From contig DATKJS010000124.1 in the NCBI GenBank assembly GCA_035543515.1, forward strand, positions 8,968 to 72,967: 64,000 bases of DNA. The letters are read 5' to 3'. Below the pieces are notes generated by a model. It saw only the letters and a list, made by a program, of their open reading frames with translations. It did not search any database and was not told where the DNA came from. Below, piece after piece: positions 1 through 37,463 of this stretch. A program made the position numbers and the translations under genes. Each line of letters begins with the position of its first letter. Positions within the stretch are counted from its first letter, which is position 1. Source of the stretch: Terriglobales bacterium (GTDB lineage: Bacteria > Acidobacteriota > Aminicenantia > Aminicenantales > Saccharicenantaceae).

Positions 1-491
1 ACCGTCGTCTCCTGGAGCTTGCCGTAGACCTTGGCCTTGCCCTTTCCCTCCCACTCATCGATCTTGTTGGTGCCGGTGATGGTCAGGGGGGCGTAGGCGT
101 CGCGGGCCTTGACGTCGACGAAGTCCTCGAAGGTCACCTCCTGGCTCCGGGTGTAGACCGTCGAATACGCGCCGGCCGTCTTGACCTCGACCGTGTCGGC
201 CCGGAAGATCGAGGGCTTGTCGGCCAGGAGCTCGCCCTTGACCCGGATGTCCTTGCCGATCAGGCTCGAGGCGTCATAGCCCTGGAGGACGATATCGAAG
301 CCCTGGGCCGTGGGCAGGTAGAGGTATTTCCCGACGGCCGTCTTGACCGTCCCCTCGAACTCGTTGGCCGCCTTCTGGGTCTCGACGGCCGCGGCCTTCT
401 CGACTTTCTTCCGGCAGGCCGTCGTCGCGGCCACCGTGACGACGAGACCGAAGCTCAAAATGACAATGCCGATCTTTCTCGCGGAACTCAT
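1..491 (-). CDS. Hypothetical lipoprotein; the window keeps the N-terminal ~163 aa and the C-terminus lies beyond position 1
   Basis: The minus-strand ATG at 491-489 follows a GGAGGGA Shine-Dalgarno. The protein begins MSSARKIGIVILSFGLVVTVAATTAC, a signal peptide with a lipobox-like Cys. The frame stays open to the window edge and is absent from the ORF track because it is truncated there. Confidence 0.5.
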   Translation of the reverse strand, partial: MSSARKIGIVILSFGLVVTVAATTACRKKVEKAAAVETQKAANEFEGTVKTAVGKYLYLPTAQGFDIVLQGYDASSLIGKDIRVKGELLADKPSIFRADTVEVKTAGAYSTVYTRSQEVTFEDFVDVKARDAYAPLTITGTNKIDEWEGKGKAKVYGKLQETT

Positions 492-702
492 GACTCGTCC
501 CTCCATGCGTTGCTCGGACATCGCTCCACTCTCGGAGGAGGAAAGCGCTCCTGCGGCCGGGAAAAACCTTCCCGGGCAAGTATCAGTTTATACCACCGCC
601 GCCGGAAAAAGTAAAGCGAAAAAGAGGGGGGATGATCCCTTCGGAGGATCCGGTTTCCGCCGCGTCGCACTGTCGGCGGGAAAGCGTCGGAAGGGCGCAA
701 GA

Positions 703-752
703 AAGGGGGTGGAAAAAGAGGACTGTCCCCAAGGAGGGGGACAGTCCCTCGT
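703..752 (-). terminator. Rho-independent terminator after the FecR-like gene
   Basis: A perfect 12-bp stem GGACTGTCCCCC / GGGGGACAGTCC with an AAGGA loop sits 15 nt after the stop at 766. It is followed on the minus strand by TCTTTTTCC. Confidence 0.55.
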
Positions 753-765
753 GATCTAATCGGTT

Positions 766-3024
766 TCAGCCTTTCCGGCGGACGCTCGAATGCCCGGAGG
801 ATGAGGACGACCTGGAGGAGGCCGAAGAGTGCGAACCCGAGGAGCCGCTCGACCGGGGAGCGCTGTAGGACCGCCCGGAAGAGCCGCCCGACCGCGGCGC
901 GGCGTAGGACCGGCCGGATGAGGAATTGGAGCGTGACGGCGCCGAGTAAGAATAGGAGCCTCGGGATTGAAAGGGGGAGGAATAGGAGCGGGGGACGCCG
1001 TAGGACCGGCCGGACGAATAGTTCGGTCCTGAAGAGGGCGACGTGCTCGGCCGGGAATAGGAGTAGGAGCGGGCGTCATACCTCGGCGCCTGGCTGTACG
1101 ACCGGGAGGGGGAGGTCGAAGGCAAGGTGGTGCTTCTCGAGCCCGTCGAATAGGACTGGCGCGGCTGGCTGCTCGAGTATTCCCTGACCGTCCGCGAGCC
1201 GGAGCCGGCCCCGGCGCTGATCCGCGAGGGGTACGTTCGGGCGTAGAGCGAGGCGTCCGGTCGGAACTCCCGGCCCGACGACGCGGATGAGGACCGGGGG
1301 CTCACGGACGGAGCCTCACGGCCCGCCGCAGAGGCGTAGTGCCTGACCTTCTCGGCGGGCTTGGCCTCGGTGCCGGACGGCTTGGACGCGCTGCCGCCCG
1401 AGCGCTCGACGGCCCGGGGAGGAGCGGCGCTCGGGGAGGGCGCGGCGCCGCGCGTGGACGGGCTGACCCGGGCGGACGAGTCGCCCTGCCTGGCGCCGGC
1501 CGATCGCGCGCCCGATCCCTGGCCGGAGGCCGGCGAGGTCGAGCGTCCCGGATAGACGCGGATCGACCGCTCCGAGGATTGGCCGGGCCGAGCGGCCGAG
1601 CCGTTGGCCTGAGACCGGCTGGGGGCGACGCTGTTCCGATCGAGGGAGCGGGCGCCGTTCATGCTTCTGGACGGCGAGCCCGCGTCGCTCTGCCTCAGCC
1701 GCGAGGCGGAGACGCCGCCGCCGGGAGCGAAATTCTTGGCCTCGCCCCGGATGCCGGCGTGGTTGGCGAAAATCCTCTGCACTTCGGGGGATTGGAGAGT
1801 CGAGCGTCCAACGCCCGGCCGGAAGCCGGGCTGCCGGTCCTGGAGGGAGACCCGGTCGAGGCGGCCGAGTTCGCCGCCGCGGAGCATGTTGTGCCCCAGG
1901 TTCGAGTCCTGGAGCCGGTCCCTGCGGATGATGTTCATGGCCCGGTTGTCATGCGGGTAGAAGGGTTCGCGGTAGCGGTCGTAGAACCTGCCGCCCCAGA
2001 TGACCGCGGGCCGGTTGTACCAGGTCAGCGGACACCAGCCGATGTAATCGTTGTCCCACCACCAGTTGACCCAGGCCGGGCCGAAGTCCCAGTGGGGGAT
2101 CCAGTACCAGCCGAGGCCGAAGCGCCACTGCCATCGGCCGTAGTGGTAGACGGACCAGCCCCAGGGCTCGGAGGAGATCCAGTTCCAGCCGAGGCCCGGG
2201 TACCAGTCCCAGCGGCCGTACATGTAGGGCCGCCAACCGTCGCCCACGCCGTAGGGGCTCCACACGTAGCCGTAGGGCTGTTCATAAGTCCATTGTCCGT
2301 TCTGGTCGAGCTCTTCCTGGTATTCGTCGATCTGGGAGGGAAGACGGCTCGTCGTGCTCCTCTGCGCGAAGAGGGCGTCCCGGGAGGCGTTCCACTGGTC
2401 GAAGGCGTCGTTGCGGGTGGTGGAATAGGCCGGCTCGCCGAGCAGGCGCCCGTCCTCGGCGGCCAGGGATTCCCGGGCGTGGACGACGACGGAGCCCGCC
2501 TCGCCGGCGGCTTCGAGACTGCCCTCGGAGACGCGGACCTCGGTCTGGCCGTTGGCGACGACGTTGATGCGGTAGAGGCCGTCATCAAGGACGTAGCAGG
2601 ACATGTCGGGGGAATGGACCTCGAAGGCCTTCTCGCCCGAGAGGCTGCTCACGCGCAGGTAGGCGCTGCCCTCGAGGACATGGATCTTAACATGGTCGTC
2701 CCCCTCGGTGGGCAGGACGGCGAATTCGACCTTGGTGTTCTCGGCCAGCCGGAGGAAGTTCCGGCGCCCGAAGTCGACCTCGGCCTGGCCGGCGCCCGTG
2801 CCGAGCGTGTCCCCTTGGACGAGGGCCAGGTTCACCTCGACTTTTTCGGTGCCGAGGCCCGCCGTCCTCTGAACGAAGACATCGCCCTGGACGTAGGTCA
2901 CCCGGGCGTAACTCGCGGCGTAATACGAGTTCGGGGCGCCCGGAGTGTCGTCCGGGGACTGGGCCGCAAGTCCGAGCGGAATGGATACGAGGAAAGCCAT
3001 CGCCAGGATCGCTGCTTTCTTCAT
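766..3024 (-). CDS. Secreted FecR-domain protein with a Trp-rich repeat domain and a ~330-aa Ser/Arg/Tyr-rich low-complexity C-terminal tail
   Basis: The likely start is ATG at 3024 (MKKAAILAMAFLVSIPLGLAA signal peptide) with a GGAGGGGAG Shine-Dalgarno; the track ORF start at 3105 is an upstream extension. A FecR-like beta segment follows (GDVFVQRTAG...VQGDTLGTGAGQAEVDF...LRLAENTKVEF). Next comes a W/G/Y-rich block (WDWYPGLGWNWISSEPWGWSVYHYGRWQWRFGLGWYWIPHWDFGPAWVNWWWDNDYIGW). The protein ends in tandem imperfect repeats of the SGRSYSAPRS type. Confidence 0.75.
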   Translation of the reverse strand: MKKAAILAMAFLVSIPLGLAAQSPDDTPGAPNSYYAASYARVTYVQGDVFVQRTAGLGTEKVEVNLALVQGDTLGTGAGQAEVDFGRRNFLRLAENTKVEFAVLPTEGDDHVKIHVLEGSAYLRVSSLSGEKAFEVHSPDMSCYVLDDGLYRINVVANGQTEVRVSEGSLEAAGEAGSVVVHARESLAAEDGRLLGEPAYSTTRNDAFDQWNASRDALFAQRSTTSRLPSQIDEYQEELDQNGQWTYEQPYGYVWSPYGVGDGWRPYMYGRWDWYPGLGWNWISSEPWGWSVYHYGRWQWRFGLGWYWIPHWDFGPAWVNWWWDNDYIGWCPLTWYNRPAVIWGGRFYDRYREPFYPHDNRAMNIIRRDRLQDSNLGHNMLRGGELGRLDRVSLQDRQPGFRPGVGRSTLQSPEVQRIFANHAGIRGEAKNFAPGGGVSASRLRQSDAGSPSRSMNGARSLDRNSVAPSRSQANGSAARPGQSSERSIRVYPGRSTSPASGQGSGARSAGARQGDSSARVSPSTRGAAPSPSAAPPRAVERSGGSASKPSGTEAKPAEKVRHYASAAGREAPSVSPRSSSASSGREFRPDASLYARTYPSRISAGAGSGSRTVREYSSSQPRQSYSTGSRSTTLPSTSPSRSYSQAPRYDARSYSYSRPSTSPSSGPNYSSGRSYGVPRSYSSPFQSRGSYSYSAPSRSNSSSGRSYAAPRSGGSSGRSYSAPRSSGSSGSHSSASSRSSSSSGHSSVRRKG

Positions 3025-3281
3025 CTTCGTTCTCCTTCCGCTCCCCTCCATTGCAACTCCCGTGCCATCTTGGTCTTCCCTGAAGGAACAGCAGAACCGT
3101 CCCAAAAAGAGGACGGCTCCCCTATAAAAGAAAGAAAGAGGGACAGTGCCCTCCGGGGGCAGTCTCTCTTACTAAGCCGGGCAGAAAATAACTGTCTTCG
3201 GATTTTTCTATCGCCCGGCCGGTATTCAGGAAGCAGTAAGGATCATGTAATATACTTACGGCTCCCGTAGTAACAATTTGC

Positions 3282-3896
3282 TCAGAAGCGATACCAGAAA
3301 AAGGGATGCCGCCAGCGCCAGGCGCCGGCGCGCGTCCGCCAGCCCCAGGCCGCCCTCGCGCGAAAGCCCGGCCCCATCCCCCAGCCGCCCCTGAGTCCCA
3401 TGATGCGGCCCATGCCGGGACGGAAGGAGCCGGCGCGCCCCGCAAAAGTCCCCCGGAAGGCCTTCATCTTCTGCAGCTGCTCGGGGGTGAAGATCCTCTC
3501 GAAGTCGCCGCGGGCGCGGAAGGCCGCCTTTTCGTGGTCGGCGCGGAGCTTCGATATCGAGTCGATGAATTCGTCAATCCTGGCCGCGTTGGCCTTGGGG
3601 TCCTTGGCTAGGTCCCGCATTTCCGCCCGCATCTTCACCATCTGGTCGCGAAAGGCCTGTCGGTCCTTCATCCGCGCCTCCCGGAACTCGCGGATCTGCT
3701 TCTCCTGGTCCGGGGTGATGCCGAGGTCCCTGATCATGTCCCGCGGTCTCGCGGGGACCTGGGCTCCGGGCTGGGCCTGTGGCTGATCCTGGGGGGCCGG
3801 CTGTTCCTGGGCCCCGGCTGCGGCGGGCCAGAGGGCGGCGACGAACGCGGCCGCCAGGACAAGGGCCCCGAGCCCTTTGACGTGCGTCTTGTTCAT
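3282..3896 (-). CDS. Spy/CpxP-family (LTxxQ motif) periplasmic protein with a Gly/Trp/Arg-rich C-terminal tail
   Basis: Start at 3896 (MNKTHVKGLGALVLAAAFVAALWPAAAGAQE signal peptide) with a GGAGTGA Shine-Dalgarno. Two helical LTxxQ-like units are present (LGITPDQEKQIREFRE and IFTPEQLQKMKAFR). The C-terminus reads GGWGMGPGFRARAAWGWRTRAGAWRWRHPFFWYRF. Confidence 0.7.
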   Translation of the reverse strand: MNKTHVKGLGALVLAAAFVAALWPAAAGAQEQPAPQDQPQAQPGAQVPARPRDMIRDLGITPDQEKQIREFREARMKDRQAFRDQMVKMRAEMRDLAKDPKANAARIDEFIDSISKLRADHEKAAFRARGDFERIFTPEQLQKMKAFRGTFAGRAGSFRPGMGRIMGLRGGWGMGPGFRARAAWGWRTRAGAWRWRHPFFWYRF

Positions 3897-7669: not shown

Positions 7670-7867
7670 TCAGGCCTTTTTCAGGATGGGCATCCCGGTC
7701 TTGGCCGTCTCCATGACCTTGTAGCCAGCGGGGACGGCATCCAGGGCCCCGGGCCGGATGTCGCGGGCGAAGTAGTAGATCGTCTGCTTCCGGCCGCCCT
7801 TCAGGTTGACGTCCTTGGAGTGCAGATAGTACCCGACCCCCTTGGAATTCTTGAATTGAAAAGCCAT
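7670..7867 (-). CDS. Small conserved-looking hypothetical protein (65 aa)
   Basis: A strong Shine-Dalgarno GGAGGTATCACTC precedes the ATG. The protein reads MAFQFKNSKGVGYYLHSKDVNLKGGRKQTIYYFARD and lies 26 nt downstream of the FadL gene on the same strand. Confidence 0.5.
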   Translation of the reverse strand: MAFQFKNSKGVGYYLHSKDVNLKGGRKQTIYYFARDIRPGALDAVPAGYKVMETAKTGMPILKKA

Positions 7868-7892: not shown

Positions 7893-9191
7893 TTAAAACT
7901 TGTAGCCGAAGTTGATGCCCAGCAGGAGGGCCTGCATCTTGTACAGGCCCTGGGCCGGGTTGATGGGACCGAACAGGCCGAAGATGTCGCCGTTCTCGCT
8001 CGTCCGGGCCATGAAGTGCTCGAAGTGGGCGCCGAGGTCGATGGTGAATTTGCCGATCGTGTAGCCGAGCCCGCCCTGGATCGCCCACCGGTCGCTGTCC
8101 GGCAGGTTCGGGTCCATGGTCGAGGTCGGCTGGGGCGTCTCGTCGAAGAAGCCGCCGAGCCGGAGGGCCAGCTTCTTCGTCGCCTGGTACGCGAAGCCCA
8201 TCCGGTAGCATTGGGAGTTCTTCCAGAGCTGGGGCGCGGTCAGGCTCTGGGCCGGATAGGGCGACGGGAAGGTGATGTCGGCGGTGTACGAATCGTAGCG
8301 CTTCCAGAAATAGGTGTGGACGTCGAAGGACCAGAGGAGCTTCGGCGTGATGTTGATGGCCAGTCCGAGGGTCAGGACGTCCGGGAACTTGAAGGTCGTC
8401 TTGACGTCCCCGGACGTCGGGACATAAGGCTGGAGGGGCGCCGGGACGAACTCGCTGTCCAGGGCGACCGTCCCGGAGTACTTGATGTTGAAATGGCTCC
8501 GGTAGCTCGCCCCGAGCGAGAAGCCCTTGCCCTTGTAGAGCAGGCCGGCGTTGAAGTTGAACGAGCTCCCGTTGGCCTTCAGGGCTGTCGGGACGTCGTA
8601 CGGCTCCCCTTCCCCGGGCGGCAGGGTGATGCTCTGGTAGAGGTCGAGCTTGAGGGTCGAGAAGATGTAGGAGCAGCCCAGGCCGAGCGAGAGGTTGTCG
8701 AGGAGCTTGATGGCGACGGCCGGGTTGACGAAGAACGTCTTCATGTCGTTGAAGTAGCCCAGGTAGGCCAGCGGGAAGGCCGGCGGCGAGTCGTTCGTCT
8801 TCTGCCACTTCGTGCCCAGGCCGAACGGGGCCATGAAGCCGATGCCGGCGGTGATGCGGTCTGAGAACTTGTGAGTGAAGTAGACGTTCGGGGGGGTGAA
8901 GACCTGGCTGACCTGCTTGATGGTCGGCGCGCCAGGATAATAGGGCATCGCGACCGAGCCCGACGGGATGATGAAGGTGGCGCCCAGCATGAGCTGCGTG
9001 CCGTCGACCCAGGCCAGCCCGGCCGGGTTGTGCCAGATGGCCGTGGGGTTGTTGGCCACGGCGGTGAAGGCCCCGCCCATGGCCATGGCGGCGGCGCCGT
9101 GCTCGTAGATGAGGAATCCCGCGCCGCGCGCCGCGGGCGCGGCCGCGACGAGCAGGACGGCGAGCGCAACCAGAATCGGCTTCGTCTTCAT
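7893..9191 (-). CDS. FadL/TodX-family outer-membrane hydrophobic-compound channel
   Basis: Start at 9191 (MKTKPILVALAVLLVAAAPAARGAG signal peptide) with a GGAGG Shine-Dalgarno. AFTAVANNPTAIWHNPAGLA is the FadL N-terminal hatch motif. The C-terminal ...GINFGYKF ends in Phe as in beta-barrel outer-membrane proteins. Confidence 0.85.
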   Translation of the reverse strand: MKTKPILVALAVLLVAAAPAARGAGFLIYEHGAAAMAMGGAFTAVANNPTAIWHNPAGLAWVDGTQLMLGATFIIPSGSVAMPYYPGAPTIKQVSQVFTPPNVYFTHKFSDRITAGIGFMAPFGLGTKWQKTNDSPPAFPLAYLGYFNDMKTFFVNPAVAIKLLDNLSLGLGCSYIFSTLKLDLYQSITLPPGEGEPYDVPTALKANGSSFNFNAGLLYKGKGFSLGASYRSHFNIKYSGTVALDSEFVPAPLQPYVPTSGDVKTTFKFPDVLTLGLAINITPKLLWSFDVHTYFWKRYDSYTADITFPSPYPAQSLTAPQLWKNSQCYRMGFAYQATKKLALRLGGFFDETPQPTSTMDPNLPDSDRWAIQGGLGYTIGKFTIDLGAHFEHFMARTSENGDIFGLFGPINPAQGLYKMQALLLGINFGYKF

Positions 9192-9278
9192 GCAAACCTC
9201 CTGGCGTTGTTCCATCGTGTCGGATCGCCGGACGCATCAATCGACGGCGTTCAGTCTCGGCTCCTCTGCCCTGGTCCA

Positions 9279-11099: not shown

Positions 11100-11315
11100 C
11101 ACAACCTTGGCGCCGCCCCTTGCGGGGCAATCGCTGTGCCAAAAGGCTGCGACCGGGCCCAGAATCCCATTGGCCCTCCGGAGGGTCAATCGCCTCCGGC
11201 GGTGGTTCCGGGAGTGAGATGGCGCGGTTTTTCTCATCGGGGACGGCTAGCCGCCCCCTTGGGCGGGCCGGGTTGACTTCGGACGGGCTTTCGCTAGAAT
11301 GATTCGAGGAAAGCC

Positions 11316-16137: not shown

Positions 16138-16211
16138 TGCCGGCGGAGGGATTTGAACCCCCGACACTGCGGATATGAGCCGCATGCTCTGACCAACTGA
16201 GCTACGCCGGC
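16138..16211 (-). tRNA. tRNA with anticodon CAU (Met or Ile2/lysidine-type); the 3' CCA is not encoded
   Basis: The reverse complement is GCCGGCGTAGCTCAGTTGGTCAGAGCATGCGGCTCATATCCGCAGTGTCGGGGGTTCAAATCCCTCCGCCGGCA. It has a 7-bp acceptor stem, a D-arm GCTC/GAGC, anticodon stem TGCGG/CCGCA with loop CTCATAT, and a T-arm with GGTTCAAAT. Confidence 0.85.

Positions 16212-36071: not shown

Positions 36072-37463
<1,392 letters not shown>

Follow-up and report, generated by a model that had tools for sequence, protein, structure and literature searches.

What is an exported bacterial protein doing with a tail of more than 300 residues rich in serine and arginine? The question is raised by a gene on the minus strand of contig DATKJS010000124.1, within the 64,000-nucleotide stretch analysed here (positions 8,968 to 72,967 of the contig; hereafter the window, in whose numbering all coordinates are given). 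A sequence-only reading had described its product as a secreted FecR-domain protein with a Trp-rich domain and a eukaryote-like tail. We find that the protein, which carries a DUF6600 domain, is already catalogued and is an ordinary member of a large bacterial family, correctly spotted by that reading, and that its gene lies behind a conserved, predicted sigma-54 promoter. Our favoured reading, to which we give slightly less than an even chance, is that of a sigma-54-induced, Sec-exported envelope protein with a cationic tethering tail.

The DUF6600 gene was delimited by an open reading frame (ORF) scan at 766..3024 on the minus strand, with its ATG at 3024-3022 and its TGA at 768-766. The ORF is as previously described, whereas the length of 753 aa given for it counts the stop codon; the protein has 752 aa. 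It is identical to P0001 and shows 100% identity to an NCBI entry named 'DUF6600 domain-containing protein'. The low complexity of the tail, and the long ORFs that this GC-rich DNA carries on its opposite strand as well, might be expected if the tail were a collapsed or expanded repeat, the product of a frameshift, or untranslated sequence. The evidence speaks otherwise. The GC content at third codon positions is 0.86 for the tail in the annotated frame, compared with 0.89 for the head and 0.88-0.95 for neighbouring genes, and the other two frames of the tail are interrupted by stop codons. Serine in the tail is spelt with five different codons, indicating that its abundance is maintained in the protein itself and does not stem from a DNA repeat. 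An imperfect DNA tandem repeat had been placed at about 790-1300; Tandem Repeats Finder detected a single short one in the tail, 39 bp in 2.1 copies at 842..922, which encodes the 13-aa unit SSGRSY[SA]APRSxG. Instead of a tandem decapeptide array, there are two copies of SGRSY[SA]APRS spaced 13 aa apart. More than 1,000 homologues were found, the best 120 of which are almost all 630-790 aa long, and in more than 100 (45-87% identity) the frame is kept to a shared end, ...SSSSSG[HRK]SxV[RK][RK]KG. The search for the same tail in relatives, which the sequence-only reading had proposed as a check, thus shows that over 100 independent assemblies share the tail's length, composition and terminal motif, and this excludes a frameshift or misassembly as its source. 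The tail is translated and is a trait of the whole family. For the tail as a whole the artefact reading is contradicted, and its probability is negligible; the ORF is an intact, real gene.

The N-terminal residues 1-21 (2962..3024, minus strand) read as a signal peptide, with MKK, a hydrophobic core and an inferred cleavage site between L-A-A and the following Q. Located here is the sole membrane-type hydrophobic segment of the protein, MKKAAILAMAFLVSIPLGLAAQ, and the PLGLxAQ motif of the signal peptide is nearly invariant in homologues. Residues 1-420 were modelled with AlphaFold2 from an alignment of 92 sequences (mean predicted local distance difference test score, pLDDT, 80.5; predicted template modelling score, pTM, 0.82). 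In the model, the signal-peptide region is a low-confidence helix, followed by a beta-sandwich (residues 40-190), two helices (207-242) and five beta-hairpins (243-349). The claim of a FecR domain holds for the fold and not for the Pfam family: Pfam FecR gave no match at E<0.1 in this protein (it is on record for many homologues), whereas the sandwich was matched by Foldseek at E about 1e-5 to the periplasmic domain of the putative anti-sigma factor BDI_1681 (4m0h/4m0n; E 1.6e-5, probability 1.00) and to the C-terminal signalling domain of PupR (6ovk_R; E 2.2e-5, probability 1.00). According to the model, the region of aa ~35-200 (2425..2922, minus strand; pLDDT about 85-97) is FecR-like at the level of fold.

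The five hairpins correspond to the Trp-rich DUF6600 domain, aa 237-345 (1990..2316, minus strand). The match to Pfam PF20245 is strong (E 4.1e-25; 88.3 bits against a cut-off of 27) and aligns aa 237-335 with positions 2-100 of the 102 in the profile. The Trp-rich block (aa 236-345) consists of 19% W, 15% G and 11% Y and contains 21 of the 22 tryptophans of the whole protein; about 20 Trp of the domain are invariant in close homologues. It had been estimated that W, Y and G make up some 40% of a 60-aa stretch, and the richest window of that size, aa 249-308, indeed reaches 53%. Between this domain and the tail lies a conserved, partly structured Arg-rich segment (aa 346-420; 1765..1989, minus strand) with 19% R, a pLDDT of about 70-86 and conserved alignment columns. 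No other Pfam domain was found in the protein, neither an RRM nor an anti-sigma domain. Together with the single N-terminal hydrophobic segment, this bears out the view that a signal peptide stands in place of the cytoplasmic anti-sigma and transmembrane part usual for FecR proteins.

The low-complexity tail comprises the last 332 aa (aa 421-752; 769..1764, minus strand) and ends in ...SSVRRKG. It is composed of 30% S, 13% R, 12% A, 11% G, 9% P and 5% Y, and has 48 basic and 13 acidic residues, giving a net charge of +35 and a pI of 11.6, compared with a pI of 4.6 for the head. In the disorder check that had been suggested for it, a charge-hydropathy test, the tail was classed as disordered. 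Being rich in Ser and Arg, positively charged and predicted to be disordered, it does look like the RS domains of eukaryotic SR proteins, to which it had been compared. However, RS and SR dipeptides are no commoner than the composition gives (30, with 25.3 +/- 4.0 expected from 2000 composition-preserving shuffles). In contrast to RS domains, the tail is also rich in Ala, Gly, Pro and Tyr, it belongs to an exported protein, and the tails of relatives swap Arg for Lys, or Ser for Pro or Ala. The likeness to RS domains is compositional only. What is enriched are SY/YS dipeptides (20, against 10 +/- 2.6 in the shuffles) and a set of motifs conserved in the clade, IRSYPS, SYSAPR and SGRSY, which exceed the shuffle expectation 20- to 100-fold. 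IRSYP occurs in 57/119 tails of close relatives (0 by shuffle) and SYSAP in 68/119 (0.5 by shuffle), these close relatives being assigned by their sources mostly to Aminicenantes. This hints that the motifs may make specific contacts on top of the bulk charge.

How widespread this arrangement is becomes clear from a full-library search with the head (aa 1-420), which returned 13,828 relatives at E<=1e-3 and 1,537 at E<=1e-30, counted as representatives of clusters at 50% identity. Nearly every full-length member among the best 150 has a low-complexity cationic tail of 150-400 aa; among the full-length members examined, tail length has a 5-95% range of roughly 170-350 aa. The composition drifts between S/R, S/K/Y, R/P/A and G/S/R types while the trait persists, and low-GC relatives such as P0300 use Lys in place of Arg and retain Ser and Tyr. 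Among 338 relatives, 330 have a head of negative net charge (median -17), 318 a tail whose net charge is above +10 (median +35), and 301 two or more basic residues among the final six. An acidic head joined to a basic tail is the rule across the family. A tail that had been called eukaryote-like and highly unusual for a bacterial exported protein is therefore the norm among its bacterial relatives.

With the PF20245 proteins that combine FecR and DUF6600 and are recorded as 'DUF6600' or 'FecR domain-containing protein', the window protein shares the domain order, the signal peptide, the Trp-rich domain, the length (about 600-800 aa) and the cationic low-complexity tail, and we found no structural difference from them. 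Specific to its lineage are the Ser/Arg/Tyr flavour of the tail with IRSYPS and SYSAPR and, as a neighbour, a lipoprotein with a predicted oligonucleotide/oligosaccharide-binding (OB) fold. The cluster names of ten distant relatives were not informative. The source metagenome-assembled genome is labelled 'Terriglobales bacterium' at NCBI; every close relative that bears a taxon name is placed in Aminicenantes or Aminicenantales, in agreement with the synteny. One 81%-identical homologue of the lipoprotein (P0126) is labelled 'Burkholderiales bacterium'. Both labels are probably binning or taxonomy errors. We are highly confident of the identity and architecture of the DUF6600 protein.

Expression of the gene appears to be controlled from the 257-nt gap that separates it from the upstream gene, which encodes an LTXXQ protein. 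Read towards the DUF6600 gene, the gap contains a terminator-like hairpin, a palindrome, a second imperfect palindrome, a sigma-54 consensus, a ribosome-binding site and the ATG. The predicted promoter, TGGCACGGGAGTTGCA (3052..3067, minus strand), is an exact TGGCAC-N5-TTGCA that starts 43 nt upstream of the ATG; nowhere else in the window is the sigma-54 consensus matched exactly. Homologous loci, of which 80 unique ones were compared (80 from a metagenome scan with an alignment as query, 4 from a single-sequence scan of genome contigs), retain it: TGGCAY-N5-TTGCW stands at -43 to -55 from the start codon in 74/78 unique upstream regions. When 35 loci with proteins 54-85% identical were aligned, the -24/-12 elements, the GTCCT...GAC half-sites and the ribosome-binding site (GGAAGGAGAA; 3030..3039, minus strand) were invariant, and the stretches between them varied. 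Relatives of 49% and 40% identity keep both a sigma-54-like site and the palindrome, the latter being present in L008 and L009, and a sigma-54-like site was also found upstream in 3/6 more distant relatives.

The palindrome, CCGTCC-N7-GGGACGG (3097..3116, minus strand), lies about 40 nt upstream of the -24 element and is conserved. A terminator scan had scored it as a terminator. It shows no compensatory changes in the 35 loci, and because of this lack of covariation it looks like a protein-binding site and not like an RNA hairpin; we regard it as a candidate site for an enhancer-binding protein. The idea that it belongs to a genome-wide repeat family was discarded, as the window shows no enrichment of GGGACnGTCCC or of GTCCT-N7-GGGAC, the latter pattern having the wrong spacing and missing the real palindrome site. 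Elsewhere in the window, a second sigma-54-like site with one mismatch, TGGCACAGCGATTGCC, lies at 11126-11141 on the minus strand, and an ORF of ~467 aa at 36729 on the plus strand encodes an NtrC-type response regulator with a GAFTGA motif.

The control region seems to serve the DUF6600 gene alone. A sigma-54-like site was found before the LTXXQ gene in 0/45 upstream regions and before the downstream lipoprotein gene in 0/62 unique ones, and the latter has a conserved sigma-70-like promoter of its own, TTTACT - 16 nt - TGgTATAAA (587..616, minus strand). Terminator-like hairpins with a T-run follow both the LTXXQ gene (3137..3154, minus strand; homologous to GGGACTGTCCC...TTTTT in the 35-locus alignment) and, directly after the stop codon, the DUF6600 gene (719..748, minus strand; 12 bp, 8 of them GC). 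The LTXXQ, DUF6600 and lipoprotein genes are therefore predicted to form separate transcription units. Psp and ZraP are sigma-54-dependent envelope responses, which the present locus resembles in placing an exported protein behind a consensus -24/-12 promoter with an upstream palindrome. More generally, sigma-54 regulons are enriched for cell-exterior functions (PMC3162934).

Taken together, these features suggest that the protein serves the envelope as an inducible tether or scaffold, rather than transducing a signal as FecR does. Expression would require sigma-54 and an enhancer-binding protein at the palindrome, so synthesis would follow a signal instead of being constitutive. Outside the cytoplasm, the head may bind a specific partner or glycan, for which the Trp-rich hairpin face is a candidate surface. 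Through its bulk charge and its short Tyr/Pro/Arg motifs, the tail would grip anionic components of the envelope, for example exopolysaccharide, DNA, peptidoglycan or the head groups of membrane lipids. In the Aminicenantes lineage, the protein may work with the neighbouring OB-fold lipoprotein. The overall assessment given at the outset reflects two components: the identity and architecture, of which we are highly confident, and the tether mechanism, which taken by itself is possible but rather doubtful. Several points count against the proposal. The sigma-54 promoter, a new result of this work, is a prediction from sequence and conservation; three of the six distant relatives have no clear sigma-54 site; and the palindrome, at about -65, is closer to the promoter than a typical upstream activator sequence. 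The sole enhancer-binding protein in the window, the NtrC-type regulator mentioned above, is encoded 33 kb from the promoter. What the head and the tail bind is a guess in either case, and the compartment may be the periplasm, the outer membrane or the outside of the cell. Foldseek returned no significant structural match for the DUF6600 hairpin domain, a profile search of the sequences in the Protein Data Bank gave only noise for it, and literature searches for DUF6600, PF20245 and IPR046535 found no papers.

The genes around the DUF6600 gene encode a sugar ABC transporter, the LTXXQ protein, the lipoprotein, a major facilitator superfamily (MFS) transporter and PGI. As described by the sequence-only reading, the LTXXQ gene (3282..3896, minus strand) encodes an exported protein of the Spy/CpxP/ZraP type with an Arg/Trp/Gly-rich tail. 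The product, of 204 aa, matches LTXXQ (PF07813; 37.9 bits against a cut-off of 24.3, E 3e-9) and Metal_resist (E 3.7e-8, above cut-off), and shares with Spy, CpxP and ZraP these matches, a signal peptide and two xTPxQ motifs, ITPDQ and FTPEQ. It differs from Spy and CpxP proper in scoring far under the NCBIfam equivalog cut-offs (Spy, 32.7 against 174; CpxP, 22.4 against 148) and in carrying an extra tail of 54 aa with 6 W, 12 G and 11 R; similar Trp/Gly/Arg tails are present in its homologues in L001 and L002. In one sub-lineage the place of LTXXQ upstream of DUF6600 is taken by an MgtE magnesium-transporter gene (L004/L005, 4480-5832; P0111, 45% identity).

The lipoprotein gene on the other side is cut by the start of the window (1..491, minus strand), and was studied through its full-length twin P0121 (243 aa; 100% identity over 163 aa), which has the lipobox TTAC with Cys26 and no Pfam match. 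Its model (pLDDT 83.9) shows two OB-like barrels. The leader of this gene (489-616, minus strand; about 100 nt) contains a conserved CCGGGAA...TTCCCGG hairpin with a weak consensus structure (-3.1 kcal/mol) and little covariation. In the whole window, Rfam at the gathering threshold identified only one tRNA (16138-16211, minus strand). Further away, the sugar ABC operon and a FadL/Toluene_X-like outer-membrane gene (7893-9215) flank an ORF of 65 aa (MAFQFKNSKGVGYYLHSKDV...; 7670-7867, minus strand). It has no Pfam family on record. Gene calls of the same length occupy the equivalent position in L001 and L004, so it probably encodes a real small protein.

Four other explanations of the DUF6600 protein have to be weighed. 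With its FecR-like fold, and with relatives labelled 'FecR family protein' or 'ferric-dicitrate binding protein FerR' by some sources, it could be a regulator that relays a cell-surface signal to an extracytoplasmic function (ECF) sigma factor. The FecR/PupR-type regulators (6ovk, 4m0h) indeed share the beta-sandwich with it (E about 2e-5), but it was found to have neither their cytoplasmic anti-sigma domain nor an internal transmembrane helix, and its C-terminal half, DUF6600 followed by a disordered tail, is unrelated to theirs. Among the called neighbours in all loci inspected there is no ECF sigma factor or TonB-dependent transducer, and the corresponding Pfam families were likewise missing. 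The architecture contradicts such a role, which is very improbable. The sequence-only reading had instead joined the protein with the LTXXQ protein in an envelope-stress or adhesion module, in which the latter might be a chaperone for a disordered or aromatic client, or both might take part in one stress response. Both proteins are predicted to be exported, and their genes are immediately adjacent on the same strand in 48/69 unique loci. The basic Trp/Gly/Arg tail of the LTXXQ protein is kept in homologues and could fit the acidic Trp-rich head, and the E. coli LTXXQ protein ZraP is sigma-54-dependent, which would suit a locus with a sigma-54 promoter. That promoter, however, stands before the DUF6600 gene and not before LTXXQ, with a terminator-like hairpin between them. 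LTXXQ is missing in about 30% of the loci, in some of which the ABC permease abuts the promoter, and the six distant relatives, which have no neighbours in common, are without it. Moreover, the whole block is syntenic in the lineage (ABC permease conserved in 44/48 loci, MFS transporter in 30/32, lipoprotein in 53/54), LTXXQ being its least conserved member, so that adjacency is weak evidence of shared function. The module is thus weakly supported, and we consider it unlikely.

The same reservation applies to the lipoprotein of about 240 aa, which is the most constant neighbour, directly downstream in 53/54 unique loci. Its best Foldseek matches are all single-strand-DNA-binding OB folds (CST, Teb1, RPA, SSB and LEF-3), and with a tail of net +35 as the binding element, the two proteins might retain polyanions in the envelope, for example extracellular DNA or another nucleic acid, or polyphosphate. 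These matches are weak (E 1e-3 to 1e-1; TM 0.2-0.3), though, and the OB fold accommodates widely differing ligands. With 254 proteins found, the family of the lipoprotein is small; it is absent beside distant DUF6600 proteins and confined to the lineage: among the 120 homologues listed, all named ones are Aminicenantes or Acidobacteriota, bar the one 'Burkholderiales'. The gene has its sigma-70-like promoter and no sigma-54 site, and other neighbours are just as syntenic. Joint capture of polyanions is therefore improbable. A direct electrostatic pairing of tail and lipoprotein was dismissed, as the lipoprotein, once mature, has a slight positive charge of its own (net +5; family median +1.5). 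Alternatively, the protein could act at the cell surface or in a matrix, anchored to the cell by its head, with the Ser/Tyr/Arg(Lys) tail serving as an adhesive, a mineral-templating polymer or a phase-separating scaffold. The enrichment of SY/YS, the retention of Ser and Tyr in relatives that swap Arg for Lys, and the origin of relatives from sediment, peat and wetland metagenomes would all fit, and the opposite charges of head and tail could allow molecules to self-associate head to tail. Silaffin R5 and the cationic aromatic adhesive proteins of the mussel-foot type resemble the tail, which we offer as a lead only. On the other hand, we saw no sign of outer-membrane passage, no conserved secretion-system genes nearby in the loci inspected and no C-terminal sorting signal with a hydrophobic segment. 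Tyr accounts for only 2% at the family median, so a chemistry based on it would not be general to the family. This role is quite unlikely.

The favoured reading, an induced envelope protein with a tethering tail, could be extended to a broader and more speculative one. The FecR-like/DUF6600 proteins might be a widespread sigma-54-controlled class whose tails form a condensate, gel, adhesive or mineral-templating layer outside the cytoplasm, nucleated by the acidic Trp-rich head. We consider this a long shot; if true, it would make them a bacterial counterpart of the silaffin-type or mussel-foot-type low-complexity proteins. Two results are of use: that acidic heads and basic tails go together throughout the family, and that the sigma-54 control region is conserved. 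A conserved acidic folded head with a basic, predicted disordered tail recurs in some 13,800 clusters (50% identity) that contain no studied member. In the bacterial envelope, little work has been devoted to long disordered regions in which charge is conserved but sequence is not. The predicted promoter and its palindrome provide an experimental handle on them: they may point to the inducing signal and the regulator and, in complete Aminicenantes or Acidobacteriota genomes, would allow the regulon to be defined.

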